A DNA stretch of 64,000 bases from Escherichia phage fEgEco12. The stretch lies in sequence record PP777464.1, one strand, 5' to 3'. Shown piece after piece: positions 19,665 to 38,047 of the stretch (position 1 is its first letter; the number at the start of each line of letters is the position of its first letter). The translations under genes and the position numbers were made by a program. The notes under the pieces were generated by a model. It did no database searches and had not been told where the DNA came from. It was given only the letters and a program-made list of their open reading frames with translations.

Positions 19665-20789
19665 TTAATTATCTAAGCCACCAATTACACTGAACTGTGT
19701 GGTAACGTCTGAACTATTATCTATGTAAGTTCTTCTACCAACATAATATAGTTGTCCTTTTGCTTGAATAAAAGTTACGGTCCCTGTATTGAATGTTATA
19801 ATATCATTGTATGTAATGTCAGGTGGTAGTGCTGCTGATAACGCAGTAACTTTACTTAATGCAGCACTAGTACTACCATTTATACCAGCAGCAATACTAC
19901 CAGTACCATAGAACTTATTATCTTTACCAATGAATACGTTGGCTGATGCTTGTGTAGCTGATGTTATTGCCTTACCAATTTGGAATGCGGTTCCTATGGT
20001 GTATGGTGTGCTCCTGGCTGCGTCTATGCTTTGTGTATATCCATCCCCTAGCTGACCATTAACTTTGTCACCACATGAGTATAGAGTACCATTGAGGCTG
20101 TATATGATCCCACGGTTAGAGAAGCTAACAGCTTCTGCATTAGTCCATACTGGTGCGGTGTATGAGTTTACACGACTAGCGGTAGTTCCTAGACCTAGTA
20201 TACCATATGTGTTATCACCACATCCAAACCATTGTCCAGAACTGTTTTGATAGAACACTGAACGTTCTGTTGATTCCATGCGTACAGCATCCACAGCACC
20301 ACTTTTAACGAACGAAGTTGATGAGGATGTAGTACCAGTACCCAATGCACCATAAGTGTTTGTACCAATCGCATAGATTGATCCTAGTGGTGTCATAACA
20401 CGTATGCAGTTATATCCCAATTGAACTTTACATTCAAATAGGTTGTCCCATATTTCAGGAACAGCAGAAAATAAATTTGTAATTTCGAACCATGATGTTG
20501 TCGAATCAGTTAATCCAATACTGCTTTTGTTTCCTAAAATGAAAACAGTTTTGTCCTTCTTAATTATCCATGATGATAGGAAACCTATCTCACAGCTATG
20601 AACATTTGATTCTATTTGGGTAATATAATACTTAACTGTGTTATCACCCATGAATGCCGCAGCACCGGATGCAAAAAGGTTTCCAGTTTGTTTATTTAAA
20701 ATGTAGTTATTGTTTCCATATACACTAACATCATAAGAACTTTCTTGTTTTTCGTTCCCATAATCAAATAACAATACGAAAGGTAACAT
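19665..20789 (-). CDS. RCC1-like repeat protein, array member 1 (leader MLPFVLLFDYGN)
   Basis: repeated G.N..GQLGDG-type motifs; shared N-terminal leader. Confidence 0.75.
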   Translation of the reverse strand: MLPFVLLFDYGNEKQESSYDVSVYGNNNYILNKQTGNLFASGAAAFMGDNTVKYYITQIESNVHSCEIGFLSSWIIKKDKTVFILGNKSSIGLTDSTTSWFEITNLFSAVPEIWDNLFECKVQLGYNCIRVMTPLGSIYAIGTNTYGALGTGTTSSSTSFVKSGAVDAVRMESTERSVFYQNSSGQWFGCGDNTYGILGLGTTASRVNSYTAPVWTNAEAVSFSNRGIIYSLNGTLYSCGDKVNGQLGDGYTQSIDAARSTPYTIGTAFQIGKAITSATQASANVFIGKDNKFYGTGSIAAGINGSTSAALSKVTALSAALPPDITYNDIITFNTGTVTFIQAKGQLYYVGRRTYIDNSSDVTTQFSVIGGLDN

Positions 20790-20866
20790 GATAAAATCTC
20801 CTTGTGTTATACTTTATTTAATCATTTTATAATGTACAATTTTACAGCGATTTAATTGAGGTACTC
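20790..20866. promoter_or_regulatory. divergent promoter region (array member 1 and + gene 20867)
   Basis: AT-rich; TATAAT-like boxes on both strands. Confidence 0.4.
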
Positions 20867-21517
20867 ATGAATAAAAGAAGTAAGTTCTATCAAGAATATT
20901 TCACTAAACAGAAACGATTCACAAAAAAATACTTTACATCATCCCACCGACCAGTTGCAAGTTACAAACGTCCTAATACTAACTATCTTACTGGTGGCAA
21001 GTTTAGTGCAAAGTTCGAATTACTTATGCGTGAAAAGAATATCAAGATGCATTACGCAGAGACGAGAAAAAACTCATCAATTATTTGTTCTGATTTTCTT
21101 GAGTACGGTTGTTTAACTTATAAATTCAACGATGTATATTTGTATATTGATGTTGATTGTAACAGTACTCGTATGTTTGAGATTTCAATTCACCCAAATC
21201 ACAACCGTTATATAAACATTAACTTGGTTGATAAAGTACTGATTGGTATATCTAGTACTGATGGTGGTGGATTTGAATTTATTGCTTCAAAATATGATGA
21301 GGACTTTGTACTGTTCCCAGTACTTGATGATGTGAAAGATATTCTCAATTCATTAAAAGGAAGTCAATACAAATTATCTGAAGAACAGCTATTTCAGTAC
21401 TCACTTATTCATGATGATATCGAGATATACTTAGAGTGTGCGAGAATATTGGAGTATCTTTATAATGAACTAACAACAACTGGTAAAGTGACAGCATTCA
21501 CATTATATAATATGTAA
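20867..21517 (+). CDS. hypothetical protein (216 aa) embedded in the array on the opposite strand
   Basis: ATG with GAGG RBS. Confidence 0.55.
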   Translation: MNKRSKFYQEYFTKQKRFTKKYFTSSHRPVASYKRPNTNYLTGGKFSAKFELLMREKNIKMHYAETRKNSSIICSDFLEYGCLTYKFNDVYLYIDVDCNSTRMFEISIHPNHNRYININLVDKVLIGISSTDGGGFEFIASKYDEDFVLFPVLDDVKDILNSLKGSQYKLSEEQLFQYSLIHDDIEIYLECARILEYLYNELTTTGKVTAFTLYNM

Positions 21518-21549
21518 AAGAAAAGCCAGTACATAGTACTGGCATTATA
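21518..21549. terminator. bidirectional terminator hairpin GCCAGTACATAGTACTGGC
   Basis: inverted repeat between convergent genes. Confidence 0.6.
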
Positions 21550-22686
21550 TTAAACTGGTGGAGAATTATATGGCTCAAATTTATAAGTTGTCGTAGCAGT
21601 ACCAGCAATGGCGTTGTTAGCTAGTATGTACATAGTCCTGTAGTCGATTACCACTACAGTAATACTACCACCAAAAGCATAGTCTGTTATGTTATTAGTG
21701 TTGAATGGTAAATTAGATGAACTGGTCCATGTATTAGCTGTTGTGCTATTTGTACCATTGGAATAACCTACACTAGATGCACCAGTTGTCCATAAGTTTC
21801 CATCATTGAACAAGGAGACATGGTTAGTTGTATATGATTTATTAGGTATAGAACTATCAATTGGTGTATTCCAAACTTTAGTAACCCATGTTGTAACTGC
21901 TGTATTATTAGTAACGCCATTACCTAATGAACCATTTATTGGTATACCTCTTATATAAGAAGTGTTAGTACTAGGGTCAACATATCCAAATGTATATGTA
22001 TCAAATGCAAATTGAAAACAATCAGAACTCGGTAATGTGTACAGTAATGTATATGAAGACGTGTTTATTGATGAATTTGTACCGTTCACGCCTTGGTATA
22101 AAATACCACTAGCCAATATTTGATTATTATTTTTTGTTATAGTGTTCATTGATGGATATGTTTTCACATCACGCACATCATTAGTCACATATGTTTGTGT
22201 TGATAATGCAACGTTACTACCATTACCTATAACCCCTGTATTTGCACCACTCCCATAAAGTGAACCATCATTCAAAAGAACCATTGTAACATTACCATTT
22301 CCCGTAATTGTTTTAATATTACTAACATCCACCGCAGCAAATACAGTTGATGTTAAATCAGTGAAACGTGTATAATGTGATGTTGTGCCATTGATTGGTG
22401 TCGCAAAACCAGAATACAAAATTCTATTTTCTTTGGTAATAAGGAATGTGCCAGTAACACCATTTGAATGGATATCAACAATATTATCGCCCATTAATAC
22501 CCAATCACTTACGAATGTTGTTGTACCAGTACCCAACCCATATGTCGTATTGTATCCACGTCCATACACTCTACCATCACTGAGTAATGTTACCACACAT
22601 TGACCACCACCACCAAGGATAACTTTTTGGATAGTACTCTTTACTTTTATATTCCCGTACTTAACCATTCTTGCAAAAGGTAACAT
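21550..22686 (-). CDS. RCC1-like repeat protein, array member 2 (leader MLPFARMVKYGN)
   Basis: GYNTTYGLGTGTTT-type motifs; only RBS upstream, co-transcribed with member 3. Confidence 0.75.
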   Translation of the reverse strand: MLPFARMVKYGNIKVKSTIQKVILGGGGQCVVTLLSDGRVYGRGYNTTYGLGTGTTTFVSDWVLMGDNIVDIHSNGVTGTFLITKENRILYSGFATPINGTTSHYTRFTDLTSTVFAAVDVSNIKTITGNGNVTMVLLNDGSLYGSGANTGVIGNGSNVALSTQTYVTNDVRDVKTYPSMNTITKNNNQILASGILYQGVNGTNSSINTSSYTLLYTLPSSDCFQFAFDTYTFGYVDPSTNTSYIRGIPINGSLGNGVTNNTAVTTWVTKVWNTPIDSSIPNKSYTTNHVSLFNDGNLWTTGASSVGYSNGTNSTTANTWTSSSNLPFNTNNITDYAFGGSITVVVIDYRTMYILANNAIAGTATTTYKFEPYNSPPV

Positions 22687-22700
22687 TCTTTTTCTCCTTG

Positions 22701-23849
22701 TTATATTGATGGCATATCCAACACATATGAGTTGCTAGTGATTGATGAATATGTAGAATTTAAACCTGTACTATAAACATAATCACCTGCCCATAAGAAT
22801 GTTCTATCCAATGTTGTATGTATTTCAATATCATCATATGATGATAATGATATTTGTGCCAGTGTATATGTAGTAGCATCAATGTTTGAACCAATACCCA
22901 AAGTACCATTGTATTGTGATTGGGAGTTTTGACCAGTTGCATATATACCAGATTTGGTTATTAAATGCTGATTGTACATTGACGTACCTTTAAACAATTT
23001 AATTAAATTAGAGTTGGGTGTTGTTATTTGTGCAGGAGCAAGTATTGTTGTTGTAGTGCCACCATCACCCAATTGACCATATCGTTGGTAACCACCAGCG
23101 TATACCTGTTTAACTCCAGCAGTAGTTTCTATAATAAAGAATGAACCATAGCCAGTAGTATTAAAGTCTATTATTTTATTTGTACTCAAACCAACATTAT
23201 ATCTAGTAAATGTTGTTGCATTTGCTGAACCACCAGCATTCCCACCGACCATTTGACCACTATAATAAAATGCACCAGTACTGTCAGTATAAGCCATACA
23301 GTTTTCACTACCATATATTTTCACTGGTGTACTGGGGAAACTAGAGGTTATATTCACACATGTATTATATTTTGCAGTAGTTCCAGTAATTTCACCATTG
23401 TTGTTTTGACCAATGACCCAAACTGTGTCATCTGAACGTATAGCCATTGAGCTATAAAACGAGGATACAAATTGTTTAATAAAGGAACCAGGGAGAGAAG
23501 TAAGCATACTATTGATTTGTGCACTCACATTGGTCCATGTATTCACAACTGAATTGACACCTGCTGCTGCACCGGAACCAGAACTCCACCATGATTCATC
23601 ATTCTTTTTAATCAATGTACCGTTAGCAGAGCAATAAACATCAGCAACTGAACTATTAACTAATATCCATTCCCTCGCTGCTGTTGTATTACCAGTACCT
23701 AGCTGTCCTGCTGCATTACTACCCTTAGCATATAAATCGCCATTCTGCGTTAAAAGCATAGTATGTTGGTATCCAGTTGACAATTTCTTTATTTTTGGTA
23801 ATGCTGGTGCTTCATTTCCATAATCAAACATTCTAACAAAAGGTAACAT
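22701..23849 (-). CDS. RCC1-like repeat protein, array member 3 (leader MLPFVRMFDYGN)
   Basis: GSNAAGQLGTGNTT, YQRYGQLGDGGTTT motifs. Confidence 0.75.
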   Translation of the reverse strand: MLPFVRMFDYGNEAPALPKIKKLSTGYQHTMLLTQNGDLYAKGSNAAGQLGTGNTTAAREWILVNSSVADVYCSANGTLIKKNDESWWSSGSGAAAGVNSVVNTWTNVSAQINSMLTSLPGSFIKQFVSSFYSSMAIRSDDTVWVIGQNNNGEITGTTAKYNTCVNITSSFPSTPVKIYGSENCMAYTDSTGAFYYSGQMVGGNAGGSANATTFTRYNVGLSTNKIIDFNTTGYGSFFIIETTAGVKQVYAGGYQRYGQLGDGGTTTTILAPAQITTPNSNLIKLFKGTSMYNQHLITKSGIYATGQNSQSQYNGTLGIGSNIDATTYTLAQISLSSYDDIEIHTTLDRTFLWAGDYVYSTGLNSTYSSITSNSYVLDMPSI

Positions 23850-23926: not shown

Positions 23927-25057
23927 TTAAATATTTTTATAATTAATTTCTACATAGTTACGTTGTGTTCCAGTATATCCTGGAACATTACCTATATTTC
24001 CATTACCTGCACCAAACAGACGTTCTCCGACTGCAAAATATGTCCCATAGAAACAACCATCAAACACAGGAACATCATTATAATTTGATATGTAATTATC
24101 CATAGAATCCATTCTAGTGTATACTGTCAGAGCTACATTCGTACCCATACCATATGCACCATACGGGTTAGTACCAGCAACATAATACCCAGTGGGTGTA
24201 CATATTACTGGTGAATTTGCCCCTGATCTCGTGTGGATAAATCTAAATGTACCTTCAGGTACTGGTGCTTCTTTACTGAATAATGTTGTAGCTACTACTG
24301 GGTAATCAATACCATAACTATTACCACTCAACCACGTTTTACCATCACTATCTTTGAATAATGAACAGGATTGTGTGCATCCGAACAGATTCAAATTGGT
24401 TACATTTGGAAATTTACTAATTTGTGTATATACCAGAACTGTGGTTGCGGCAGCACTACCAAGTTGTCCACGACCATTATCACCCGCACTGTACATGTAC
24501 CCATCGGTCTTTAATATTATACTAGCGTTTCCTAAAATATCAAAATCAACAACATCCGTTTGTGTTAATGTAGCTATAGGATAACGAAAATTCACTGCCT
24601 CACCAGTACCAAATTGACAATTGGTGTTTGCCCCACATCCATATAAGTTGCCGTTTTGCATTAATATAAACAAACCTGTTGTCATTTTAATTTTCTTAAT
24701 ATTAAGAATATCTATATCTTGGAATATGTGTGTTACATTTACAAATGTGGTTGAGTTAACAGCACTTGAACCATAATAAGAACCGTTCCCGCTGCCAAAG
24801 AATTCATCGCCTTTTCTGTACATTGCACATAGACTACCACCCCATACATCATCAACCCCAGTGTCAATTTGAATAACAGAAGTAACACTAGTTGTTGTAC
24901 CAGTGCCAAGTTCACCACCTGAATTGTATCCAAAACCATACAAATCCCCACTTTCTGTTAGCACCAAAACACTGTTATTGGTTGTGCATGAAATCTTTTT
25001 GATATTATTAGATGGTCTTTTATTTCCGTACTTAACCATTCTTGCAAAAGGTAACAT
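23927..25057 (-). CDS. RCC1-like repeat protein, array member 4 (MLPFARMVKYGN)
   Basis: GYNSGGELGTGTTT, GDNGRGQLG motifs. Confidence 0.75.
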   Translation of the reverse strand: MLPFARMVKYGNKRPSNNIKKISCTTNNSVLVLTESGDLYGFGYNSGGELGTGTTTSVTSVIQIDTGVDDVWGGSLCAMYRKGDEFFGSGNGSYYGSSAVNSTTFVNVTHIFQDIDILNIKKIKMTTGLFILMQNGNLYGCGANTNCQFGTGEAVNFRYPIATLTQTDVVDFDILGNASIILKTDGYMYSAGDNGRGQLGSAAATTVLVYTQISKFPNVTNLNLFGCTQSCSLFKDSDGKTWLSGNSYGIDYPVVATTLFSKEAPVPEGTFRFIHTRSGANSPVICTPTGYYVAGTNPYGAYGMGTNVALTVYTRMDSMDNYISNYNDVPVFDGCFYGTYFAVGERLFGAGNGNIGNVPGYTGTQRNYVEINYKNI

Positions 25058-25136: not shown

Positions 25137-26246
25137 TCATTTCGGCATTGTAATTGCAGACCATGAGTTCGTGGTAATAGGACCTGGCACATACAAAAAA
25201 GAACCACAAGCATAAATTTGATTATTACCATCAAATACTATACTAAAATGTGCACATGTGTATAATGCTGATTTTTCTGGGTTGTAATTATCTAAAGTTA
25301 GTGTATTGGTGAATCTACTCAAACCACCACCAGAACCATTTCTACCAAATTCACCAGTACTATATATCTTTCCTTCGGTTGTTGCGTACATATTAACATA
25401 TGAAGTTGCACTTGATTTTGATATTTTATGTATCTTACTATCAATAGTAGTGGAGTTAAATGCAAATGGATATACTTGTGTGTTCGTTGTAATACCGTTA
25501 CCAAGTTGACCAACATACTGCCAACCTGCGTTGTATATATTGCTGGCTGAATAAGCAAGAGTACCAGTACTGTTACCACCAAACAGTTTAACACTGGTTA
25601 ACCTGCTTACTAGTGTAGTATACTGTCCTGGACTTACGCCAAGTGAACCATACCCACTACTCCCACAACCGAGAAGTTCACCATTTGATGTTAATATTAA
25701 TGTGTTATTCTGTGTACCCAATATATCAAGGACTGTATTAGCTCCGGTATTAATAACTGAAACAAAAGTACTCTGAGCCGTGGAATACCCAGCACCGAGT
25801 GAATAGTTACCATTCATGCCTCTACCATAAACAATCGAACCACTAGCATCAACGTAGTGCATTGTATCTACACCAATTGATATCATTTTAATATTAGATA
25901 TATGTGGAAATGAAGAAGTAACATTCAAACCACCCAACTGAATCGTAGTATTTCCTGTGCCTAATTGTGTGGTAACTCCATGCATTATGAATTCTTCACC
26001 CTTGAGATAAAGAATATTGTACGCCCCAGCCCATGCATCAGTAACACCTTCTGAAATTAATATCCAAGTATTTCTTGTTGCTGTATTTTCAACGTTTAAC
26101 TGAAAATAAGTATTAACCCCACAACCATAAAGTGAGCCATCGCCATAGAGGACGTACAAATTATCAAGACCGCACAGTACTTTCTTTATCTTTGGATCTT
26201 CAGGTGCAATATTCCCGTAATCAAACATTCTAACAAAAGGTAACAT
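25137..26246 (-). CDS. RCC1-like repeat protein, array member 5 (MLPFVRMFDYGN)
   Basis: start set at the MLPF Met; track ORF extends through the cassette. Confidence 0.75.
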   Translation of the reverse strand: MLPFVRMFDYGNIAPEDPKIKKVLCGLDNLYVLYGDGSLYGCGVNTYFQLNVENTATRNTWILISEGVTDAWAGAYNILYLKGEEFIMHGVTTQLGTGNTTIQLGGLNVTSSFPHISNIKMISIGVDTMHYVDASGSIVYGRGMNGNYSLGAGYSTAQSTFVSVINTGANTVLDILGTQNNTLILTSNGELLGCGSSGYGSLGVSPGQYTTLVSRLTSVKLFGGNSTGTLAYSASNIYNAGWQYVGQLGNGITTNTQVYPFAFNSTTIDSKIHKISKSSATSYVNMYATTEGKIYSTGEFGRNGSGGGLSRFTNTLTLDNYNPEKSALYTCAHFSIVFDGNNQIYACGSFLYVPGPITTNSWSAITMPK

Positions 26247-26318
26247 ATTTCCTCCTTTATTCATTATACTATATTTAATACAAAAAGAAAAGCCAGTACT
26301 CAAGTACTGGCCTATATT
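26247..26318 (-). promoter_or_regulatory. array cassette (terminator hairpin + promoter + RBS)
   Basis: conserved cassette. Confidence 0.6.
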
Positions 26319-27056
26319 TTAGACTGAATTGTTAGGATAATATCTCCCACGTCCCCATATTATTCGCACAGCACCACCACCAGCAGCAGTATAAGAAGAA
26401 TTATCCCATATACTACCACCACCACCATACCTCTTACCAGCACCACCACTACCAGCACCACCATTATATGAACCACCGTAGCTACCACCAATACCATTAG
26501 CACCTTGAACAATGATACCAGTACCACCACCCGTACCAATGAACGAGGTACTATAGAATGTACCACCCCCACCGCCGCCGCCAGCACCATTTTCACCAGT
26601 GATTGCATCTCCGTTACCACCTTTACCAGTGTAGCCACCAGCACCACCACCAATGACTGCACCACCACTTACACCAGTGTTGCCACCATTACCACCACCA
26701 TCATTAATAGCGTTAGCAGCTTTTCCACCTAGTCCACCAACCGTATATGCACCAGTGAAGCTAACACATAGTTTTTCAGTTCCACGGTATAAACCGTTTT
26801 CAACTGCTGTAGTAGTGTTGGAATGTGTAAGAGAAACACTTAAGTACTCACCACCAGAAACTGGAATATTATTACGCCACGATAAGCCGCCACCAGCACC
26901 ACGTTGACCACCCGGTGAAATAACACATACTGATATTTCGGTAACGCCAGCAGGAACTGTAAATTGTGTTGTTCCTATTGCCGTGATTAATTGTTCACCA
27001 TGTGGCTTATATTCAATTTTATTCCCGTACTTAACCATTCTTGCAAAAGGTAACAT
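26319..27056 (-). CDS. glycine-rich protein carrying the array leader (MLPFARMVKYGN)
   Basis: same leader and cassette, body replaced by poly-Gly low-complexity sequence. Confidence 0.7.
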   Translation of the reverse strand: MLPFARMVKYGNKIEYKPHGEQLITAIGTTQFTVPAGVTEISVCVISPGGQRGAGGGLSWRNNIPVSGGEYLSVSLTHSNTTTAVENGLYRGTEKLCVSFTGAYTVGGLGGKAANAINDGGGNGGNTGVSGGAVIGGGAGGYTGKGGNGDAITGENGAGGGGGGGTFYSTSFIGTGGGTGIIVQGANGIGGSYGGSYNGGAGSGGAGKRYGGGGSIWDNSSYTAAGGGAVRIIWGRGRYYPNNSV

Positions 27057-27128: not shown

Positions 27129-28319
27129 TTACAATTGTCTAGGTGTATCCAGAACATATCTATTTGTTTTAGGACCACCATCATCATAAGTTCCGGTTGA
27201 ATATATATTTTTCATATCAGCAGTCAGGAAAGTACGCAACGAACCGCGATATATTTTTATTTTATCATACATAGAATATGTTATTTCTGACGGCAATGGA
27301 CATGCAGTAAATTTACCAATGGTAGCATCATAACCAACACCCAATGTGCCAGCATAACTACTCGCATTTAAACCAGTTGCATATACACCTGTACTCGTAA
27401 CTAGTATACTAGATTGTGCTGGGTATCCAGTATGGATTGAATAATAAGTACCGGGTGGTAATGTAGCACTATTATTTCCTAAAACTCCATTAACAGTGCT
27501 AGATGTAGTTTTATTTCCCCATGCTCCATTATTAGCTAATCCACCAACTAGAAACTGACGTGCTCCTGTATTTGGATTCTCCACTAAAGCACTGACAGCA
27601 CCAAATGAACAAACAGTATATTGTAATGTTTTTGTATATGTGGTACTTGGCTTATACAAAGTATATTCATTAAATGGTGTCCATGTGGTACTAGTACTTA
27701 TGCCAGATGTACTACCACCAATATATAAATTATTTTGTGTATCATAAAACATTACACAGCTATTTGTTGACTGTATTCGTGCAATATCAACATTAGGCGT
27801 GACAGCTTTTACAAATGAACCATCTGATATTTGATAAGTAGTTCCTGTACCATCTGCGAATTGTCTAGCACTATTCCACCCTGTACTCCATATTGTATTA
27901 TTATCCATTAAGAAAGTAAACCACGTAGTACCTGCATACATCTGTTTAATTGAAGTACTTGAACTTTGTGTGTACAAATTTTCAATATATTGGTTATAAC
28001 TTAAAAATGATGTAGTACTAGTTTCTAAACCAATATGACTACCATATCCACAATAAAAATAATTTAAGTCCTTATCTTGAACTAACAAAGTTCCTTGTGT
28101 CATCCAGCAATCTTTGACATTTTCTCTAATTAATGTCCACGACCTTACTGCATTATTATTTCCTCTACCAAACTTCCCATAACTATTACTACCTCGTGCG
28201 TATAGTTGACCGTCGGTATAAAGTACAACAACCTCAGTATCAGTTGGTATTATTTTCTTAATTTGAAGAGGTTCAGGTGTGATATTCCCATAATCAAACA
28301 TTCTAACAAAAGGTAACAT
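27129..28319 (-). CDS. RCC1-like repeat protein, array member 7
   Basis: GSNSYGKFGRGNNNAVRSW motif; leader. Confidence 0.75.
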   Translation of the reverse strand: MLPFVRMFDYGNITPEPLQIKKIIPTDTEVVVLYTDGQLYARGSNSYGKFGRGNNNAVRSWTLIRENVKDCWMTQGTLLVQDKDLNYFYCGYGSHIGLETSTTSFLSYNQYIENLYTQSSSTSIKQMYAGTTWFTFLMDNNTIWSTGWNSARQFADGTGTTYQISDGSFVKAVTPNVDIARIQSTNSCVMFYDTQNNLYIGGSTSGISTSTTWTPFNEYTLYKPSTTYTKTLQYTVCSFGAVSALVENPNTGARQFLVGGLANNGAWGNKTTSSTVNGVLGNNSATLPPGTYYSIHTGYPAQSSILVTSTGVYATGLNASSYAGTLGVGYDATIGKFTACPLPSEITYSMYDKIKIYRGSLRTFLTADMKNIYSTGTYDDGGPKTNRYVLDTPRQL

Positions 28320-29533: not shown

Positions 29534-29607
29534 AATTCCCTCCTTTATTCATTATACTATATTTAATACAAATAAGAATGCCAGTACTCTGTACTGGCAT
29601 TTTAATT
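29534..29607 (-). promoter_or_regulatory. array cassette
   Basis: conserved cassette. Confidence 0.6.
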
Positions 29608-30762
29608 TTAACTCGGTGTAACTATTTTTTTAAATAATCCTGTATTTCCGGCATTTTCTTCTTCATACGGAATTGTACCCATACCAGCAGTTCTACTACC
29701 ATTCCCTGAACCATATAATTCACCGTTTTTTAACATGAATGTTATCATATAACCATGTGTCATTTTATCATATGGAACTGGTTCAGTTATATTAGTACAT
29801 GCACGCCATGTTTTAATAACATTAGAGTTCGTTATTCCATCTCCAGAAGCGTTTCCACGCCCAGCGAAATACCATATACCACCTGCTCTAACGTGTGCTT
29901 CATAATTAGAACCACCTATGTAATCAATCGCAGTACTAGGAATACTAGAAGCTGGTATCTTTGTGATTGTTCTAAGACTGTTAATAGTGCCATCAGTGCC
30001 ATCACCCAACTGTCCATCTATTTGTGAACCGAATACATATAGCCCATCACTCTTTAATACGTAATTAGCACTATATGCATTTTCTGAATTTATCTGTAAT
30101 ACTCCAGTAGTAACAGTAGTCAATGTGGTAGTTGTACTAGTCGTACCAGTCGAACCAATACTAGATTTATTCCCACTGTACTTTAATGTCCCATCATTGT
30201 ATAATACAAATGAAGCATTATTCGCGGTTACACCAATATCTTTAACATCAACTTCAGGTGTCAATGTCAGTACTGATACTCTTTGTCCAACAGCCCCAGT
30301 AAAAACTTCACCGTTGTTATTGTCACCCATCTTATATAATTTATTATCTATTGTTAATAATAATGTAACGCCGTTTCCTATAACTATTTTACTATATGTG
30401 TCATTCACATTATTAAAAATACCAAGTATTTCTGTCCATACACGATAAGTAGTATTAACACCACGATAGATTTGAGTACCAGTACTCCACCATGTGCCAT
30501 CATTTTTACGTACTAATATTCCTTGTGTATCACCAGTAGTCCAAAATTCCTTTACATCAGTTAAACATAAAACCCACTCTTCAACTATAGTAGGAGAACT
30601 ACTACCAGTACCTAATTGATAGTAAAAATTATGCCCTCTGCCATATAATCTTCCGTCTTCTAATAAAATAAACACATTATTCTGTAAAACTTTTACCATC
30701 TTTATACCAACTGGCACAGGTGCTTCATTCCCATAATCAAACATTCTAACAAAAGGTAACAT
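29608..30762 (-). CDS. RCC1-like repeat protein, array member 9
   Basis: GHNFYYQLGTG, GSQIDGQLGDG motifs. Confidence 0.75.
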   Translation of the reverse strand: MLPFVRMFDYGNEAPVPVGIKMVKVLQNNVFILLEDGRLYGRGHNFYYQLGTGSSSPTIVEEWVLCLTDVKEFWTTGDTQGILVRKNDGTWWSTGTQIYRGVNTTYRVWTEILGIFNNVNDTYSKIVIGNGVTLLLTIDNKLYKMGDNNNGEVFTGAVGQRVSVLTLTPEVDVKDIGVTANNASFVLYNDGTLKYSGNKSSIGSTGTTSTTTTLTTVTTGVLQINSENAYSANYVLKSDGLYVFGSQIDGQLGDGTDGTINSLRTITKIPASSIPSTAIDYIGGSNYEAHVRAGGIWYFAGRGNASGDGITNSNVIKTWRACTNITEPVPYDKMTHGYMITFMLKNGELYGSGNGSRTAGMGTIPYEEENAGNTGLFKKIVTPS

Positions 30763-30832
30763 ATTTCCCTCCTTTATTCATTATACTATATTTAATCAAA
30801 AAGAATGCCAGTACTTGAGTACTGGCATTATG
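30763..30832 (-). promoter_or_regulatory. array cassette
   Basis: conserved cassette. Confidence 0.6.
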
Positions 30833-31942
30833 TTATTTTGGTAAATCAATTTTAGCAAAGACTGCAACATCTGCACTTGCACCTGGAATGGCGTAATACG
30901 ATCCAGTACTATATACATTCCCGTCTTTGGTTAATAATGATGTTAATCCGTCACTAAAAGCAACATCACTAATCTCACTAACTTCTACAGGTAATTGTAA
31001 ATTAGCAGCACTATAGATAGCACCCGTTTGAGAATTGTTTAATCCCAAACCACGGTTTCCCCCAATACCTTTCTGATATGCACTAGTTAATATAATTTGC
31101 GTAGCCGTGCTTGTTGCCTCTGAATTTGTCATAAACAAAGGTGAATTATTAGGTAAAGTACTTACAGGAACTGCTTTGAATGTAGTTGAATCTGAACTAA
31201 GAAAGTTTGGAGTTGTACCACATGTGAAATATGATGTACCATTATAGTAATTGAGTGTATGTCCACCAATAGCTGCATCTATTACACCAGAACTACGCAG
31301 TCCCCAAATGTTAACTTGTGTTCTGTTCCCTGTGCCATGTAATCCACGGTCATTCCACCCTGAACTATATAACTTATTATCTATGCTAATATACATACTA
31401 TCATTAGGAGTAGACATAACTTTACGCACATTAGAAGCACATAGTGTTAATGTATATATTGATGAAGAACCAATCCCCAATACACCACGGTATCCATTAG
31501 CCCCAGCACCATAGAGTACTGAACTTGAACTGAGTACAAATATTACACCACCATTGCATACAATATTAGCAATTTGATTCACAGGAATTGTATTTGTAAA
31601 CCACTCCGTTCTATCAACTAATGTAGTACTGTAAGAAGTTGTTGTTGATGATGTGAACCAATATGTTTCACCTGATGTCCATATCGTATTGTCATTTTTA
31701 ATAATAACAAGTGTTCGTCCTCCAGTGAAAAAATTAGAAACATCTGCACTTACTAATGTCCAAGAAGATACCGTGTTTTTATTACCATTTCCAGATTCAC
31801 CACCTTGATTTCTGCCTATGTAATATAATTCATGTGAATCAGTCAATACGAATTGACCTTGTGTAGAAGCACCAACTTTTATTATATTTTTAGGACCAGG
31901 TGTAATATTCCCATAATCAAATAGTCTTACAAAAGGTAACAT
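30833..31942 (-). CDS. RCC1-like repeat protein, array member 10
   Basis: start at MLPF Met; 8-nt gap with GGAGGAAT RBS, co-transcribed with member 11. Confidence 0.75.
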   Translation of the reverse strand: MLPFVRLFDYGNITPGPKNIIKVGASTQGQFVLTDSHELYYIGRNQGGESGNGNKNTVSSWTLVSADVSNFFTGGRTLVIIKNDNTIWTSGETYWFTSSTTTSYSTTLVDRTEWFTNTIPVNQIANIVCNGGVIFVLSSSSVLYGAGANGYRGVLGIGSSSIYTLTLCASNVRKVMSTPNDSMYISIDNKLYSSGWNDRGLHGTGNRTQVNIWGLRSSGVIDAAIGGHTLNYYNGTSYFTCGTTPNFLSSDSTTFKAVPVSTLPNNSPLFMTNSEATSTATQIILTSAYQKGIGGNRGLGLNNSQTGAIYSAANLQLPVEVSEISDVAFSDGLTSLLTKDGNVYSTGSYYAIPGASADVAVFAKIDLPK

Positions 31943-31950
31943 AATTCCTC

Positions 31951-33144
31951 CTATTGTTGCCATAACTGCGTTGGCATTAATGTTAATGTTTTAATTAAGT
32001 AAGTACCATCCGGTAATTTACTACCTGAACCGTTAAAGCCCCCACATGCATATAATTTATAATCTTTAGTTATAATTATTGTTCTGGACCAGTCTTTGGA
32101 TGCCATAAGAACATTGTCATATCCACCCTGTATCGCACTTAAAGAAAACGCCCCCCACGAAGTAATTATTGTTGTATTTCCCGTCCCTTCTTGACCATAT
32201 GTATTGATGCCTGCACTCCTGACATATGATGGGTATTGAGCCATAGGTGCACCAATTGTTGAGTTACCCATATTACTAGGACACAGGAAACCATCACTAA
32301 TATTCACTATAACCTGTGAATTCTGAACTGTAGTTAATTGGTTTGTAGTTGAAGTAGTACCATTCCCAGCTTGTCCAGAATTGTTTCTACCACTCCAGTA
32401 CACCCTACCGGCAGTAAACCACCAGGTAACATCATAAGTAGTACTTATATAATCGACGTTGGTTCGTATTAATTTATTAGTAAAAACGTATGAGCTAGTC
32501 CCACCACCACTTTCACCAAAGTTATCCTTACCACAAAACCATGCTTCTTTATTTGTTTTGAGATAGTGCGTACCCTGTAATGAACACGCCAATTGAGAAA
32601 CTTCACCCATACCAGTAACAACTGTTAGTACTGGAATGGGATTTTGGTTACCTGTTCCACATTCGGCATTTGCATTTTTACCACAAACAACGACTCTTCC
32701 ATCGTGTAGTAATATTCTAGTACTTTCACCTATATGTACACTCTTGATTAAATTAGCGTGTATATTTATTTTGTTAAATGCGGCAGTAACATCAGTCCAT
32801 GTTCTAAAATAACCATTAACTGGAGTTGCATCTCCATAATCGGGGAATGCTACTGTATTCCCTGTGAAATATATTCTATTATCCAAGTCAATCATCAATG
32901 ATCCATGAACGCCTAACCAAAAGGCTGCACAGTGCGTTGCCAGTACTGTAAAAGTTGAAACTGCCGATTGATTCCCTAGACCTAATTGGCTCAAGTTATT
33001 ACCACCATAACCGTATAGTGTATTCGTGGGCTTATGTAGATACATAGCATTAGTATAATGTTGCTGTAAAACATCAGTGAACTCAACTGGTTCAGGAATA
33101 GGCAGTTTATTCCCGTACTTAACCATTCTTGCAAAAGGTAACAT
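31951..33144 (-). CDS. RCC1-like repeat protein, array member 11
   Basis: GGNNLSQLGLG, GRNNSGQAGNG motifs; start at MLPF Met (alternative 33159). Confidence 0.7.
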   Translation of the reverse strand: MLPFARMVKYGNKLPIPEPVEFTDVLQQHYTNAMYLHKPTNTLYGYGGNNLSQLGLGNQSAVSTFTVLATHCAAFWLGVHGSLMIDLDNRIYFTGNTVAFPDYGDATPVNGYFRTWTDVTAAFNKINIHANLIKSVHIGESTRILLHDGRVVVCGKNANAECGTGNQNPIPVLTVVTGMGEVSQLACSLQGTHYLKTNKEAWFCGKDNFGESGGGTSSYVFTNKLIRTNVDYISTTYDVTWWFTAGRVYWSGRNNSGQAGNGTTSTTNQLTTVQNSQVIVNISDGFLCPSNMGNSTIGAPMAQYPSYVRSAGINTYGQEGTGNTTIITSWGAFSLSAIQGGYDNVLMASKDWSRTIIITKDYKLYACGGFNGSGSKLPDGTYLIKTLTLMPTQLWQQ

Positions 33145-33159
33145 AACTAAAATCTCCAT

Positions 33160-33219: not shown

Positions 33220-34401
33220 TTATGGTAAAATAATAGCTTGTAACGAACTCATACCCAATGTTGGAACACTCGCCTGTGGTGCTGGTGCATTCACTTTTGG
33301 TGATGAAACCGCATATGTCATTCCTGAACCCAAATCTGGATCAAAAACTACAGCACAATAATTCCCACTATATATAAGTCCATTCTTGTATCCTTGTGCA
33401 CTTTGAATGCATTTCGTGAACGTCCCAATATCTGTAGTGGCATTTATTAAGTTCCTCCCACGATAACCGCAGGTGTATATGAAATTATCATCGCCTATGT
33501 ACATACTAGAATCCCCAGCAGAACTACATAGATACGACATATAAGCACGCATGTTTTTAGGAGCAACTGACAATGTACCAGCATAGAATTTATTATTCGA
33601 ACCCGAAATATCACCATCACCCAAAGCACCAAAACTCCCCCAACCAGTACCATAATATCTCTTATCACTCAAGAATATAATACAGTTGTTATTACACATC
33701 TTGACTTGATATATCAATGAAGGATCAACCCCAGGGAATGATTCAGTGTATGTTAGAACAGCCAGATCAGTACTAGCATTACATTGATGATATGTATTAG
33801 TACCAGAGGACAATATTGTACCATCAACTAATAGAATCCTCGAAGTGCCAGTACCAGCAGTACAAGCAACTGCACTTCCTGCACTTCCGGTGTATATTTG
33901 TCTGAAAGTAAAGAAACCAACAGTCTTACTCCCTTGTCCACTCCAACCAGTATTATCAACACCACACGCCCATACTGAACCATCTTCCATGATCATCATT
34001 ACACCATAACGTTCTATTGAAATATAAACAATCTTTTTAGTATCAACTGCACTAAATCTAGAAGTTATATCCGTCCAAACCTTTACACTTACCGCCGTCG
34101 CACTGGAAGTAGGATCTTCACCTGCTATCATTATCCTACCATTGTTAGTCAGATACATTGTCTGACTATAACCAGTACTACAAAACTTAACACTATCAGT
34201 CTCTGGAACTTTTAACCACTCGTTGTAACGTGTTACGTTAGTGTTATTACCTAACTGATAATAGTTATTCATCCCAGATACATATAACACACCATCCTTT
34301 ATTAAACTATAAGTCGCACTATAGTCACTACAGGTATAACGTGTACCCACAGGTGGCTCAACGACGTTCCCATAATCAAACATTCTAACAAAAGGTAACA
34401 T
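33220..34401 (-). CDS. RCC1-like repeat protein, array member 12
   Basis: GMNNYYQLGNNTN motif; leader. Confidence 0.75.
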   Translation of the reverse strand: MLPFVRMFDYGNVVEPPVGTRYTCSDYSATYSLIKDGVLYVSGMNNYYQLGNNTNVTRYNEWLKVPETDSVKFCSTGYSQTMYLTNNGRIMIAGEDPTSSATAVSVKVWTDITSRFSAVDTKKIVYISIERYGVMMIMEDGSVWACGVDNTGWSGQGSKTVGFFTFRQIYTGSAGSAVACTAGTGTSRILLVDGTILSSGTNTYHQCNASTDLAVLTYTESFPGVDPSLIYQVKMCNNNCIIFLSDKRYYGTGWGSFGALGDGDISGSNNKFYAGTLSVAPKNMRAYMSYLCSSAGDSSMYIGDDNFIYTCGYRGRNLINATTDIGTFTKCIQSAQGYKNGLIYSGNYCAVVFDPDLGSGMTYAVSSPKVNAPAPQASVPTLGMSSLQAIILP

Positions 34402-34474: not shown

Positions 34475-35596
34475 TTAAAAGGGCAACGGTAACTCAGTAA
34501 AAGTACTTACGTCCGGTAAACCATACATTGAATTAGCATCACCACAGTAATACCACTTCGTAGAATCATGTACCACCGATAAACGCTGTGCACATAACAC
34601 TTCCTGTATGTCATTAAACACCATCGGGACTAACTCATATGTATCCGCAAATGAAGATACACCACCACTCGCATGAAAAGTATTCGTCCCAGCATAAAAT
34701 AACTGATTAGTGTTCTTACCCACAGCAAATGTCATCAATATCCCATCATTCTCCCATAAAGAAGAAAACTTATCAACACTACCAGAAAGCTCTGTGTAAG
34801 TACTCGTAATGGCACTCGCAGCCGCCGCATTACCCATCTGTTTATTCAAGTTCTGTCCAGCAATAAAATATCTCGTTCGTGCACTAGAATCAGTATATAA
34901 TAACCCAGTGTTCGTAGTCATCATACCAATGTCCTTAATCGTCATACCAGTCTGTGAATAACTTAGATACGAAGTTAAATTAACATTATTACCCAACGAA
35001 CCGTTATCACTCATGCCACAACGATGTAATATACCACTTGTATCAACGTAGATTGTACTAACTAAACTCGTATACAACTCTTGTACATTATTCGCAATAA
35101 ACACAGCAGTCGCCTTATTACTAACCCCACCAAATGATAGGTTATTATCAAATCCCTTAGCGTATAATTGATTATTAGTAGTCAATAATCCAATCGTGAA
35201 ATAAGACATTTTCATATCCCTTACTGTACTCAAATCTACTGCCCCAAATTGGTGCGTAACATCTGTCCATGTGAAAATCTGTGCACTACCAACACCACCC
35301 GTTTCAAACCATTTGTCACCACAGTACAATATGCGATTACCCTTAGTAAAGATAACTGTTACCAATCCACTACCACACGCAAACTTTACATCACTTCTAA
35401 CCTTCGTCCAATCAAGTACATAGGTAGTGGTGTTATTACCTATACCTAACTTGCCATAACGGTTATAACCACGCACCCACAAATCACCACTCTTAGTAAT
35501 TAATAGTAATGCGTCTCCTGTACTTATTATTCGAAATCCCGAACTAGGATCAGGTACTTCATTTCCATAATCAAACATTCTAACAAAAGGTAACAT
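34475..35596 (-). CDS. RCC1-like repeat protein, array member 13
   Basis: GYNRYGKLGIGNNTT motif. Confidence 0.75.
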   Translation of the reverse strand: MLPFVRMFDYGNEVPDPSSGFRIISTGDALLLITKSGDLWVRGYNRYGKLGIGNNTTTYVLDWTKVRSDVKFACGSGLVTVIFTKGNRILYCGDKWFETGGVGSAQIFTWTDVTHQFGAVDLSTVRDMKMSYFTIGLLTTNNQLYAKGFDNNLSFGGVSNKATAVFIANNVQELYTSLVSTIYVDTSGILHRCGMSDNGSLGNNVNLTSYLSYSQTGMTIKDIGMMTTNTGLLYTDSSARTRYFIAGQNLNKQMGNAAAASAITSTYTELSGSVDKFSSLWENDGILMTFAVGKNTNQLFYAGTNTFHASGGVSSFADTYELVPMVFNDIQEVLCAQRLSVVHDSTKWYYCGDANSMYGLPDVSTFTELPLPF

Positions 35597-35668
35597 ATTT
35601 CCCTCCTTTATTCATTATAATATATTTAATACAAAAAAGAAAAGCCAGTACAGAGTACTGGCATAGTA
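35597..35668 (-). promoter_or_regulatory. array cassette
   Basis: conserved cassette. Confidence 0.6.
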
Positions 35669-36778
35669 TTACTTGGGTAATGGAATTGTAGTCCATCTAT
35701 TAGCGGCAACGCCCCCTGGTACATATGTAGGACTACCACTTACAGCAATAGTTTCATTACCATCATACACAACACTGAAGTTTGTGCACGTATACAACGA
35801 GGCGGTATCTGGATTGTAATTTATAAGTGTTAATGTATTGGTGAACAAATTCAATGCAGTAGTTGACCCGTTTTTACCAAACGAACCTGTCGTATATATC
35901 TTTCCTTCTGTTGTTGAGTACATGTTAACATATGACCCAGATGATGATTTGGCAATTTTATCTATCTTGCTATCTATCGTTTTAGAGTTAAATTGAAATG
36001 GATATACCTGTACGTTAGTATCTAAACCATTTCCTAGTTCCCCATTTAACTGCCACCCTGAGTGGTACATTCCCGAATTTGTATATGCAAGCGTACTATA
36101 CCCATTACCACCCATTATTTTAGTGCCAGATAATTTTAAACCAAACGATGTCCACTTACCAGTTTCATTTCCTATAGAACCATAAGCACTTGTCCCACAT
36201 GCTCGAAGCTCACCATTCGATGTTAGAAGCACTGTATTATTAACGTTACCAAATATATCAATAACCTGATTAGTTCCATTATTCAGTACTGAAGTGAAAG
36301 TACTCTGTGAGTAAGTACTACCTGAACCAACAGAACCATTTGTGTTCATACCTCTTCCATATACAGTTGTACCATCAGCACTAACATAGTGCATTGAATC
36401 AAAACCAATGGATATCATTTTAATATTAGAGATATCTGGGAATGAAGAAGTTACATCTACTCCACCTAATGGAATTGTAGTATTTCCTAAACCTAATGAG
36501 ACATTAGTTCCGTGCATTATAAATTTATCTTCTTTCAAATATAAAATATTGTATCCACCAGCCCATGCATTACTAACACCATTGGTAATTAGTACCCAAT
36601 TATTTTGTGTAGCAGTTCCATCAATATTTAACTGTTGATAGTTATTGATTCCACAACCATATAGCGAACCATCACCATATAGTACATATAAATTATCATA
36701 TCCTGCTATAACTTTCTTTATTTTTTTCGGTACTGGTGCAATATTCCCGTACTTAACCATTCTTACAAAAGGTAACAT
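35669..36778 (-). CDS. RCC1-like repeat protein, array member 14 (close paralog of member 5)
   Basis: start at MLPF Met. Confidence 0.75.
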   Translation of the reverse strand: MLPFVRMVKYGNIAPVPKKIKKVIAGYDNLYVLYGDGSLYGCGINNYQQLNIDGTATQNNWVLITNGVSNAWAGGYNILYLKEDKFIMHGTNVSLGLGNTTIPLGGVDVTSSFPDISNIKMISIGFDSMHYVSADGTTVYGRGMNTNGSVGSGSTYSQSTFTSVLNNGTNQVIDIFGNVNNTVLLTSNGELRACGTSAYGSIGNETGKWTSFGLKLSGTKIMGGNGYSTLAYTNSGMYHSGWQLNGELGNGLDTNVQVYPFQFNSKTIDSKIDKIAKSSSGSYVNMYSTTEGKIYTTGSFGKNGSTTALNLFTNTLTLINYNPDTASLYTCTNFSVVYDGNETIAVSGSPTYVPGGVAANRWTTIPLPK

Positions 36779-36850
36779 ATTTCCTCCTTTATTCATTATA
36801 CTATATTTAATACAAAAAGAAAAGCCAGTATCAAGTACTGGCATATTAAA
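36779..36850 (-). promoter_or_regulatory. array cassette
   Basis: conserved cassette. Confidence 0.6.
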
Positions 36851-37999
36851 TCACTGCCAAAATGACATATCAACTTCTGTGAAATTAAGCACGCTCTGCG
36901 TAGAAAGACCACCCATTGCTACCATCGCAATTCCACAATAATATAACTTCCCTTTGTCATTGAGTAACAATGTCCCAGATGGTGTTGTTACTAAATTGCA
37001 CGAAGTATTAAAAGAAGTATATGAAGGAGTATAGTAGTACTGATTAATGGTATTACCTACACCTAATTTTCCATACCCATTTTCTCCAGATGCGTAAAGT
37101 ACTTCATCACCTTTAGCAATATGTGATGCCATGTTACTAACACACGTGTATACAGCTCTAACTCCTGTACTCAATAATGTAGGAGTCTTGTATTGGATAT
37201 CAGTACTAGTAGATGTCCCACCTGTACCAAATTCATTACCGTATTGTGCACCGTATTGTTTACCACAAGCGTACAAATTATTATCCGATTTGATAAAAAA
37301 TGTACTCTGATAACTTACATTAAAATCTATAACATCCGAAGAAATCATCGTCACCCCAGTAATAGAAGTTTGATTACCCGTGCCCAACTGGTAGTAATAG
37401 TTAAAACCACAACCCCATAAAGTATTATCTTCTCGCAAATAAATGTTACCAACTGCCTTTTTAACCGAAGTTATAGTATCTACTCTTTTGAATGTGTTAA
37501 AAGAATTAATGTTTGTGCCATCACCAAATGATGATATGTTCGATATATTGTTAGTTCCACAACAATACAATGTACCATCGTTTGTTATCAAATTCACCTT
37601 CATATCATAAAAACTACTCATGTATTTTATATCAGAAACATTAATACCACTTGATGTTATCCACGTAGTACAGTCCGTCCACAAAGTTTTTCTATCAGTT
37701 ACACCAGTGAATGCCTTCGTGTTACCAGTGATAAAAACTTTTCCAGTACCTTTCTCTTCATACAATTGACAATCACTACTGTTATCTTCCAATAGAACTC
37801 GTTTAACATTCTCCGCACAAAGAATAAATTTACTCGATGCTACACCTGTACCAGTACCCCAATTCGTCGCAGAAGATGCATACAACTTGTCAGTATAAGT
37901 ATCATGAAGATACATAGAATCACTGGAATATATTTTATAACGACCAGAGTTGGTAGGAGCTTCATTCCCATAATCAAACATTCTAACAAAAGGTAACAT
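36851..37999 (-). CDS. RCC1-like repeat protein, array member 15
   Basis: GFNYYYQLGTGNQ, GENGYGKLGVGNT motifs; start at MLPF Met. Confidence 0.75.
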   Translation of the reverse strand: MLPFVRMFDYGNEAPTNSGRYKIYSSDSMYLHDTYTDKLYASSATNWGTGTGVASSKFILCAENVKRVLLEDNSSDCQLYEEKGTGKVFITGNTKAFTGVTDRKTLWTDCTTWITSSGINVSDIKYMSSFYDMKVNLITNDGTLYCCGTNNISNISSFGDGTNINSFNTFKRVDTITSVKKAVGNIYLREDNTLWGCGFNYYYQLGTGNQTSITGVTMISSDVIDFNVSYQSTFFIKSDNNLYACGKQYGAQYGNEFGTGGTSTSTDIQYKTPTLLSTGVRAVYTCVSNMASHIAKGDEVLYASGENGYGKLGVGNTINQYYYTPSYTSFNTSCNLVTTPSGTLLLNDKGKLYYCGIAMVAMGGLSTQSVLNFTEVDMSFWQ

Positions 38000-38047
38000 A
38001 TTTCCTCCTTTATTCATTATATCATATTTACCCCAAAAAGAAAACCC
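38000..38047 (-). promoter_or_regulatory. promoter/RBS cassette of array member 15
   Basis: same cassette sequence. Confidence 0.5.

Follow-up and report, generated by a model that had tools for sequence, protein, structure and literature searches.

Why would a jumbo phage begin 15 consecutive genes with the same 12-residue peptide when the proteins that follow it are so diverse? The question is raised by a 64,000-nucleotide stretch of DNA from Escherichia phage fEgEco12 (sequence record PP777464.1; 'the window' below means the whole of that stretch), which is Asteriusvirus DNA (the 121Q/PBECO4/phAPEC6 group of Rak2-like jumbo coliphages) with vB_Ec-M-J as its closest relative. The listing of its open reading frames (ORFs) contains a run of 15 consecutive minus-strand genes between positions 19665 and 37999, all of which share an N-terminal leader of the form MLPF[VA]R[ML][FV][DK]YGN. 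We lean toward the explanation that this leader is retained on the protein and docks exchangeable ligand-binding heads onto the virion.

A six-frame search of the window with the pattern LPFxx[LMIV]xxYG returned exactly 15 matches, all on the minus strand at the starts of the array genes, with no match in the rest of the 64 kb; 0.02 would be expected by chance (the mean of mononucleotide shuffles). Translation of each gene starts at the ATG of MLPF, which follows AAGGAGG and corresponds to the upper coordinate of each gene listed below; longer ORF versions (beginning MNKGGNMLPF...) represent read-through of the Shine-Dalgarno site. The bodies behind the leader are RCC1-like in 14 genes, with matches to the RCC1-like domain (RLD) model or the repeat models of Pfam, and glycine-rich in one (g06):

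19665..20789, minus strand: g01, RCC1-like propeller, 374 amino acids, leader MLPFVLLFDYGN (Pfam RCC1 50 bits, RLD E 2e-22; 99% identity to vB_Ec-M-J 571)
21550..22686, minus strand: g02, RCC1-like propeller, 378 amino acids, leader MLPFARMVKYGN (RLD E 1e-8, RCC1_2 below cut-off; 97% identity to MJ572)
22701..23849, minus strand: g03, RCC1-like propeller, 382 amino acids, leader MLPFVRMFDYGN (Pfam, AlphaFold model, Foldseek)
23927..25057, minus strand: g04, RCC1-like propeller, 376 amino acids, leader MLPFARMVKYGN (RLD E 2e-33; cassette replaced in vB_Ec-M-J)
25137..26246, minus strand: g05, RCC1-like propeller, 369 amino acids, leader MLPFVRMFDYGN (Pfam; 63% identity to g14)
26319..27056, minus strand: g06, glycine-rich protein (Gly_rich_2 family relatives), not a propeller, 245 amino acids, leader MLPFARMVKYGN (phrog_4474, AlphaFold)
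27129..28319, minus strand: g07, RCC1-like propeller, 396 amino acids, leader MLPFVRMFDYGN (Pfam; 92% identity to MJ576)
28391..29533, minus strand: g08, RCC1-like propeller, 380 amino acids, leader MLPFARMVKYGN (Pfam; near-identical ortholog JP4_582)
29608..30762, minus strand: g09, RCC1-like propeller, 384 amino acids, leader MLPFVRMFDYGN (Pfam; 93% identity to MJ578)
30833..31942, minus strand: g10, RCC1-like propeller, 369 amino acids, leader MLPFVRLFDYGN (Pfam; 83% identity to MJ579)
31951..33144, minus strand: g11, RCC1-like propeller, 397 amino acids, leader MLPFARMVKYGN (Pfam; cassette replaced in vB_Ec-M-J)
33220..34401, minus strand: g12, RCC1-like propeller, 393 amino acids, leader MLPFVRMFDYGN (Pfam; 96% identity to MJ581)
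34475..35596, minus strand: g13, RCC1-like propeller, 373 amino acids, leader MLPFVRMFDYGN (RLD E 4e-15, repeat models below cut-off; 99.5% identity to MJ582)
35669..36778, minus strand: g14, RCC1-like propeller, 369 amino acids, hybrid leader MLPFVRMVKYGN (Pfam; cassette replaced in vB_Ec-M-J)
36851..37999, minus strand: g15, first gene of the array, RCC1-like propeller, 382 amino acids, leader MLPFVRMFDYGN (Pfam; 92% identity to MJ584)

The RLD model was matched by all 14 of the long genes (E 1e-8 to 2e-33), and 11 of the 14 also passed the curated cut-off of RCC1 or RCC1_2, with the repeat matches of g02, g10 and g13 remaining below threshold. Propeller modeling covered one paralog, g03 (queried without Met1, so that its numbering is shifted by one). 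AlphaFold predicted a seven-bladed propeller (predicted local distance difference test score (pLDDT) 88.7, predicted template modeling score 0.88) that matched UVR8, RPGR, HERC2-RLD and RCC1 in Foldseek (TM ∼0.77, with a span of 0.63–0.78, and E down to 1e-25). A profile search with g06 itself gave no Pfam match; some of its homologs carry PF21722 (Gly_rich_2), and its AlphaFold model (pLDDT 92.6) was closest in the PDB to a Pam3 cyanophage fiber (the best match), the ALK glycine-rich domain and a mycobacteriophage tail tip, with poor global superposition.

The bodies have diverged considerably from one another, with pairwise identities of 21–31% (median 26%) and a single closer pair (g05/g14, 63%). 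Comparison with the orthologous cassettes of the closest relative gave ratios of nonsynonymous to synonymous substitution (dN/dS) of 0.04–0.22, indicating that the array genes are functional and under purifying selection; gene-wide positive selection was not seen in that comparison. Across the clade the bodies are single-domain propellers, lectin-like folds or glycine-rich domains rather than tail fibers or tailspikes. Folds of this kind suit modules exposed for binding, and signal peptides or domains of surface proteins are present in bacterial homologs of RCC1. The sequences of the array proteins offer no support for chromatin binding or for activity as a guanine nucleotide exchange factor for Ran. 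The annotation 'DNA condensation' goes back to the naming of the founder protein in eukaryotes, and the published speculation of the phAPEC6 authors that the RCC1-like proteins act in DNA condensation or in an inner body (PMC7247149) lacks support from this analysis.

The leader behaves quite differently from the bodies. Its pairwise identity is 50–100% (median 75%, versus the body median of 26%), and over the 36 nucleotides of codons 2–13 the median pairwise nucleotide identity is 81%, falling to 33% over the next 36. Conservation ends abruptly past codon 12, and also extends over ∼75 nucleotides upstream (a hairpin, a T-run, the TTAAATATAGTATAAT box and the Shine-Dalgarno site). Two leader subtypes are present in the array, MLPFVRMFDYGN in nine genes (including the variants VLLFD and VRLFD) and MLPFARMVKYGN in six (including one V..VK hybrid), and synonymous positions in the window are nearly invariant within each. 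The subtypes covary at codons 5, 8 and 9 (V..FD versus A..VK), so that the charge at residue 9 is reversed between them, and roughly alternate along the array. One and the same body can carry a different subtype from phage to phage, and the VK type makes up almost all of the leaders in phAPEC6 and 121Q. The original prediction for this DNA had described 15 minus-strand genes of about 370–400 residues with a near-invariant leader, conserved at the nucleotide level too, on 14 hypervariable RCC1-type bodies. The leader and its restriction to the array within the window are borne out; the conservation of its codons is confirmed and reaches farther upstream than had been noted; and the Pfam profiles, together with the g03 model, agree with 14 RCC1-type bodies. 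The size range does not hold for g06, and the divergence of the bodies stands, but under purifying selection.

If the leader is a module in its own right, it should be separable from any one body. In Rak2-like phages it is found on four unrelated folds: RCC1, Kelch (vB_Ec-M-J 585 and CBB_550, 552 and 554; E 1e-12 to 4e-32), ConA/LamG-like (CBB_548 and 551; Laminin_G_3, E 2e-12) and glycine-rich. The 'virion structural protein' family phrog_6011, which includes GAP32 gp002, likewise consists of ConA/LamG-like leader proteins. Among the 120 best RCC1 homologs in a large protein database, only phage-type members carry the leader, and cellular RCC1 homologs do not. Both modeled bodies place the leader outside the fold as a low-confidence extension formed by the first ∼18 residues: positions 1–10 of the g03 model have a mean pLDDT of 53 and its strands begin at position 19, and residues 1–10 of the g06 model have a pLDDT of 49, with the fold beginning at residue 20.

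Phages of other genera retain the peptide in modified form: MLPFSRIIQYGN in GAP32, MLPFPRLxEYAN in CBB, MLPFPIISNT or ..KYGN in Serratia phage BF and Yersinia phage fHe-Yen9-04, and MFPIPIISKYGN in Xanthomonas phage XaC1. In Eneladusvirus, Mimasvirus and XaC1 the leader genes abut one another without any cassette between them, and synonymous differences among the leader codons (CCA/CCT/CCG, ATA/ATC/ATT, AGT/AGC) leave the peptide intact. The persistence of the peptide in these distant genera, despite synonymous codon change and the lack of a cassette, argues for selection on the leader peptide itself. A back-translated leader pattern retrieved only two contigs from IMG/VR, one of which was CBB, and no new lineages.

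We then asked whether leader-bearing proteins are found in phage particles. The evidence consists of published mass spectrometry (MS) of relatives, rather than of fEgEco12, onto which we mapped the leader genes. Eight of the ten leader proteins of CBB (CBB_247, 536, 537, 548, 549, 550, 551, 552, 553 and 554 being the ten genes) are present in its purified particles according to the published table of electrospray ionization tandem MS, whereas the proportion for all ORFs is 55 of 554 (Fisher p 2e-7); the leader-protein detections reach 8 peptides and 51% coverage. In phAPEC6, for which detection of eight RCC1-like/leader proteins in virions was reported (PMC7247149), 8 of 13 unique leader genes are detected versus 62 of 551 overall (p ∼1e-5); the detected proteins start MLPF[AG]RM[VILM][KN]YGN and include gp005, the ortholog of g08. 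GAP32 gp001, reported as structural (PMC5259590), bears the leader, and JP4_577, 581 and 582 appear in the JP4 virion data from liquid chromatography with tandem MS (weakly, with 1 peptide each for JP4_577 and JP4_581). Three peptides from CBB virions (R.LFEYANVIIPPNYK.V, R.LLQYGNK.K and K.YANVIVEYATK.F) overlap leader residues 7–20, indicating that at least that part of the leader is kept in the mature particle. Taken together, these data make it very probable that the leader-bearing proteins are virion-associated.

The conserved DNA upstream of the leader forms a cassette. A near-identical block, comprising a hairpin (GCCAGTACT-loop-AGTACTGGC) with a T-run, TTAAATATAGTATAAT, AAGGAGG and the leader, precedes 12 of the 15 genes. 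One representative copy of the part between genes is as follows:

29534..29607, minus strand: cassette with hairpin GCCAGTAC..GTACTGGC and T-run (29601-29577), TTAAATATAGTATAAT box (first base 29565) and AAGGAGG Shine-Dalgarno site

The TTAAATATAGTATAAT box occurs 12 times in the window and only ahead of array genes, with its first bases at 38030 (ahead of g15), 36809, 35628, 34436, 33180, 30794, 29565, 28351, 27088, 26277, 25089 and 23881. Two genes lack a cassette of their own, g02 starting 14 nucleotides downstream of g03 and g10 starting 8 nucleotides downstream of g11, and the box copy of g01 is degenerate. Terminator-like sites number 25 in the window, compared with 7.2 +/- 3.5 expected, and are dominated by one conserved hairpin. 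The core of that hairpin (CCAGTACT..AGTACTGG) is scored as a terminator in either orientation at several positions (19634-19660, 21525-21543, 26290-26313, 29575-29603 and 30804-30829), including array borders beside plus-strand genes, and may be a general bidirectional terminator of fEgEco12. Sigma-70-like sites are not enriched (85 versus 95 expected), and the neutral sigma-70 scan does not single out the cassette; an early sigma-70 promoter there was rejected on this basis. The cassette box (TTAAATA/GTAAATA) matches the [AT]TAAATA sequence found 25–55 nucleotides upstream of the phAPEC6 genes for head, baseplate and other MS-verified proteins, and an ATAAATA late motif has been reported for CBB and GAP32 (PMC5259590). 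From this shared TAAATA core we infer that the array genes are probably expressed late.

The array is also hypervariable. Of the 24-kb flank, 96% is matched by vB_Ec-M-J, with 96% identity there, whereas the matched share of the array itself is just 29%. Between these close relatives the replacements go cassette by cassette: 10 of the 15 cassettes are orthologous (83–99.5% amino acid identity) and five (g04–g06, g11 and g14) have been replaced, and vB_Ec-M-J has two extra leader genes, one of them Kelch. Comparison of g05 with its phAPEC6 and 121Q orthologs reveals ∼98% identity from leader codon 10 onward, unrelated sequence upstream of the Shine-Dalgarno site and the other leader subtype, with the switch at codons 5, 8 and 9. 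This pattern places a crossover inside the leader.

We believe that these observations are best accommodated, on balance, by a docking role for the leader. The array would then be a bank of late-expressed accessory virion proteins, most with their own transcription unit. The 12-residue MLPFxRMxxYGN peptide would stay on the mature protein and dock to a common acceptor site on the particle, and the globular head (here 14 RCC1-type propellers and one glycine-rich domain; in relatives also Kelch and ConA/LamG-like lectin folds) would bind a ligand, probably on the host surface. With a constant tag and differing heads, one acceptor could display many specificities. The conserved DNA block (hairpin, TAAATA box, Shine-Dalgarno site and leader codons) could act as portable homology through which whole heads are swapped between co-infecting relatives. 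Incorporation would thus be mediated by the leader itself, and the array proteins would presumably be located externally and act as adhesins. An incorporation or attachment signal on diversified bodies was among the functions put forward in the original prediction, and it is the one favored by the CBB and phAPEC6 proteomes, by the four folds and by the position of the leader outside them.

Several considerations weigh against this docking role. The tie between leader and incorporation is a correlation across the proteomes of relatives rather than an experimental result; the acceptor protein is not identified, and none was searched for; and whole-virion MS cannot place proteins inside versus outside the particle, in phages of which two (121Q and phAPEC6) have an inner body. 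Detections in Asteriusvirus are weak (1–5 peptides in phAPEC6, and the single peptides in two rows of the JP4 data), and the phAPEC6 virion list includes evident non-structural proteins (a RecA-like protein, thymidylate synthase and topoisomerase). Leader residues 1–6 are unseen by MS because the tryptic peptide is too short, so that trimming of the extreme N-terminus is possible. Invariance of the leader within Asteriusvirus could partly reflect gene conversion rather than selection on the peptide, and the late timing of the array genes is suggested by motif similarity only.

The main alternative is that the leader corresponds to a T4-like capsid-targeting sequence (CTS) that binds the scaffolding core, with the proteins residing in the inner body or being ejected with the DNA as host-takeover or anti-defense effectors. 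This would lie near the published inner-body suggestion, and these phages possess head genes of T4 type (among them those for a scaffold and a gp21-like prohead protease); the T4 CTS likewise consists of ∼10 N-terminal residues common to very diverse proteins, and both the inner body of 121Q and phAPEC6 and the low peptide counts are in keeping with internal cargo. The T4 CTS, however, is a propeptide removed after L/I-X-E, and [LI]xE is present within the first 30 residues of only g11 (1 of 15); its lack in the other 14, together with the retention of residues 7–20 in mature CBB virions, disfavors a T4-type cleaved sequence and, with it, the capsid-targeting function that had been proposed for the tag. 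Propellers, lectin folds and a fiber-like glycine-rich domain are the sort of modules that typically bind from an exposed position, the ∼30 Å T4 portal channel would be too narrow for a folded 40-kDa seven-bladed propeller, and the chromatin role of RCC1 is a eukaryote-specific function of one member rather than of the fold. We therefore regard internal cargo as improbable. Secretion of non-virion, host-interaction proteins, also raised in the original prediction, has even less in its favor: the N-terminal position of the peptide would suit an export signal and nothing else does, since it is a 12-residue peptide with no hydrophobic helix, the proteins were recovered from purified virions in four phages and the promoter box is of a late type. 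We consider it very unlikely indeed.

A different class of explanation denies the leader any role in docking. Codons 1–12 might be conserved as DNA, for translation initiation or through gene conversion, leaving a functionless peptide as the by-product of an expression and recombination cassette. The continuity of the conserved block from the hairpin through codon 12, the near-invariance of synonymous sites within each subtype, the crossover inside the leader and the resemblance of the cassettes to PeSL elements known to mediate shuffling would all be expected on that account, but the genes of Eneladusvirus, Mimasvirus and XaC1 keep the peptide with no cassette and with synonymously varying codons, the peptide is conserved in phages of hosts from Escherichia to Xanthomonas, and its presence correlates with virion incorporation. 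A purely DNA-level account, which we judge quite unlikely overall, fails for the distant genera and may add to the extreme invariance within Asteriusvirus. We attach a similarly low probability to the leader being a recognition site for a chaperone of the phage or another factor in folding, assembly or modification, or else an intrinsic structural element. Some propellers are closed by N-terminal strands, and these phages encode GroES-like and other assembly factors; the same peptide, however, is found on four unrelated folds, AlphaFold integrates it into neither of the modeled ones, and it is absent from cellular RCC1 propellers of equal length. A propeller-closing strand was rejected on these grounds, the leader being unstructured in the models, present on non-propeller heads and missing from cellular RCC1 proteins. 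A pure chaperone tag would be compatible with the virion enrichment, although it would not by itself explain it.

A second N-terminal tag, on the same types of body, is present in Vequintavirinae. Cronobacter phage EspYZU08 (MW882934, 126500-136500) contains a LamG-like protein starting MQELLLIG (1174-1824), an RCC1-like protein starting MFEMLLGG (4853-6016; Pfam RLD E 4e-13) and a glycine-rich protein starting MLEILTIG (7866-8603), and the record leaves most of these genes without annotation. The LamG-like protein ADU18_0096 of PBES02 (4956-5606 of its stretch) starts MNEMLMLG, and many metagenomic glycine-rich homologs start M[LI]E[LM][LM]. Judged from these sequences, the pattern suggests lineage-specific tags on shared bodies. 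An 'MLEMM' tag in a 266-kb contig is common to two tandem glycine-rich paralogs only, with no other fold there, and EspYZU08 makes the stronger case. A wider reading, which we offer tentatively and as a rather doubtful extension, is that large myoviruses might use portable, lineage-specific 'virion address tags' of 8–12 N-terminal residues (MLPFxRMxxYGN in Rak2-like phages; M-x-E-[LMI]-L-x-x-G in Vequintavirinae and others) to load small, monomeric modules of lectin and propeller type (RCC1, Kelch, LamG and glycine-rich), drawn from a pool that is shared horizontally, onto a multivalent acceptor on the particle, possibly the hair-like fibers of 121Q, phAPEC6 and CBB. Such a re-assortable, multi-specific glycan-binding coat would form a recognition layer distinct from tail fibers and spikes, and the tag would be a 12-residue display handle.

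The distribution of the bodies may bear on this. In tblastn searches of a phage collection with the RCC1, LamG-like and glycine-rich bodies, the Alcyoneusviruses RaK2 and K64-1 were not among the matches listed; the Klebsiella phages that were listed included fENko-Kae01 and vB_KaeM_KaOmega. Alcyoneusviruses instead carry 10–11 branched depolymerase receptor-binding proteins. Leader-bearing heads and branched depolymerases are thus possibly two multi-head recognition strategies with complementary distribution.

Some side observations concern the annotation of phAPEC6 and the window. The gp004 gene of phAPEC6 (VVQSLVVV..., 7716-8018 of the phAPEC6 stretch) is a wrong-frame call over a glycine-rich leader gene whose true start is at 7325, and the same spurious ORF lies over g06 in the window (26360-26668, minus strand). 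Two more phAPEC6 leader genes, starting at 2434 and 6063 of that stretch, are unannotated, and the phAPEC6 record repeats ∼2.4 kb (gp550 and gp551) at both ends.

The neighborhood of the array contains further gene groups, all on the plus strand:

11854-12889, plus strand: three tandem paralogous ORFs of ∼112 amino acids each
18209-19628, plus strand: four consecutive genes for 104–123-residue proteins that resemble multi-pass membrane proteins, have a basic C-terminus (..RKKRG or the like) and are of similar size and composition, with no clustering by BLAST at E 1e-4
20867-21517, plus strand: a lone gene between g01 and g02 (216 amino acids, phrog_34359), with neither the leader nor a Pfam match
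38102-42705, plus strand, directly upstream of the array: ∼18 tandem genes for proteins of 60–70 amino acids in four paralog families (6, 5, 5 and 2 members), one example of a family feature being a C-terminal ..YTYREVLKLI motif

If the leader were a sufficient docking signal, it would explain why each jumbo phage of this clade has 10–15 divergent propeller and lectin genes, now misleadingly annotated as 'DNA condensation' or 'chromosome condensation regulator'. These would constitute a further, rapidly re-assortable layer of host-surface recognition, and phage engineers could use the leader, as a very short tag, to load foreign proteins onto a ∼350-kb phage particle. The docking-peptide principle would then extend from the trimeric tailspikes of small podoviruses to monomeric modules of giant myoviruses, and would also point to a parallel tag family in Vequintavirinae. 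If the docking role is wrong, what remains is the already known paralog array, whose genes share a conserved 5' cassette for expression and recombination.

How does this array relate to systems already described? Tandem RCC1-like genes of the same family, at the same locus, are on record for Rak2-like phages (121Q_234-248, PBECO4, phAPEC6 gp001-010 and gp549-551, and GAP32 gp001), with 13 copies counted in 121Q and 6 in PBECO4 (PMC5259590) and 11 in phAPEC6 (PMC7247149). The view in the original prediction that this was not a described system therefore holds only in part, since the tandem genes and their detection in virions are published. The published accounts (PMC5259590, PMC7247149) are silent on the shared leader and on members other than RCC1, as well as on how the cassettes are built and swapped. 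We found no description of the leader, its use on other folds or the cassette structure in the searchable literature; literature searches for the leader motif or for the structural placement of these proteins returned nothing relevant, and the jumbo-phage overview by Iyer and Aravind makes no mention of RCC1 or propellers. The array is thus already known, and what appears undescribed is the leader as an address tag, its modularity across four folds, the correlation between its presence and incorporation into virions, and its use as a site of recombination.

Two systems share individual properties with the array. The CTS of the T4 internal proteins IPI-III (PMC9026906, PMC3012670), from a T4-related myovirus, similarly comprises ∼10 shared N-terminal residues on diverse proteins encoded at a hypervariable locus. 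It determines packaging and is cleaved by the prohead protease after L/I-X-E, with the cargo inside the head. The array, unlike that system, lacks L/I-X-E (in 14 of 15), its leader is retained in CBB virions and its folds suggest surface exposure. The PeSL cassettes of T4-like phages (PMC2839356, PMC4122927) resemble the blocks between array genes in that a stem-loop terminator and a promoter are repeated between genes, and the repeats bound indels and replacements. PeSL promoters are early sigma-70 elements, whereas the array element resembles a late, TAAATA-type one, and the array block runs on through the Shine-Dalgarno site and 12 codons, with the result that a protein tag is encoded in the recombining module.

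Among validated systems, the nearest precedent is that of secondary receptor-binding proteins, whose conserved N-terminal docking peptides of 7–29 residues are required for incorporation (deletion abolishes it) and, when fused, carry a foreign enzymatic domain into the particle (PMC6872550, PMC13352976). Examples include K1-5, K1E and SP6 (7–11 residues), KP32 gp38 (29 residues), KP34 and the branched systems of G7C and CBA120. In both cases a short, lineage-specific, conserved N-terminal peptide is found on unrelated, swappable bodies; a need for it in incorporation has been shown for the receptor-binding proteins. The leader sequence is unrelated to these docking peptides, the array bodies are globular and 25–45 kDa in size rather than trimeric spikes or depolymerases, and 10–15 genes per genome stand in tandem rather than 1–4, with the acceptor (a T4gp10-like branching domain or another) not identified. 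Because its bodies are neither fibers nor spikes and no acceptor is known, we do not class the array as a member of the docking-peptide receptor-binding proteins, and place it beside them as a system that would work in a similar way.

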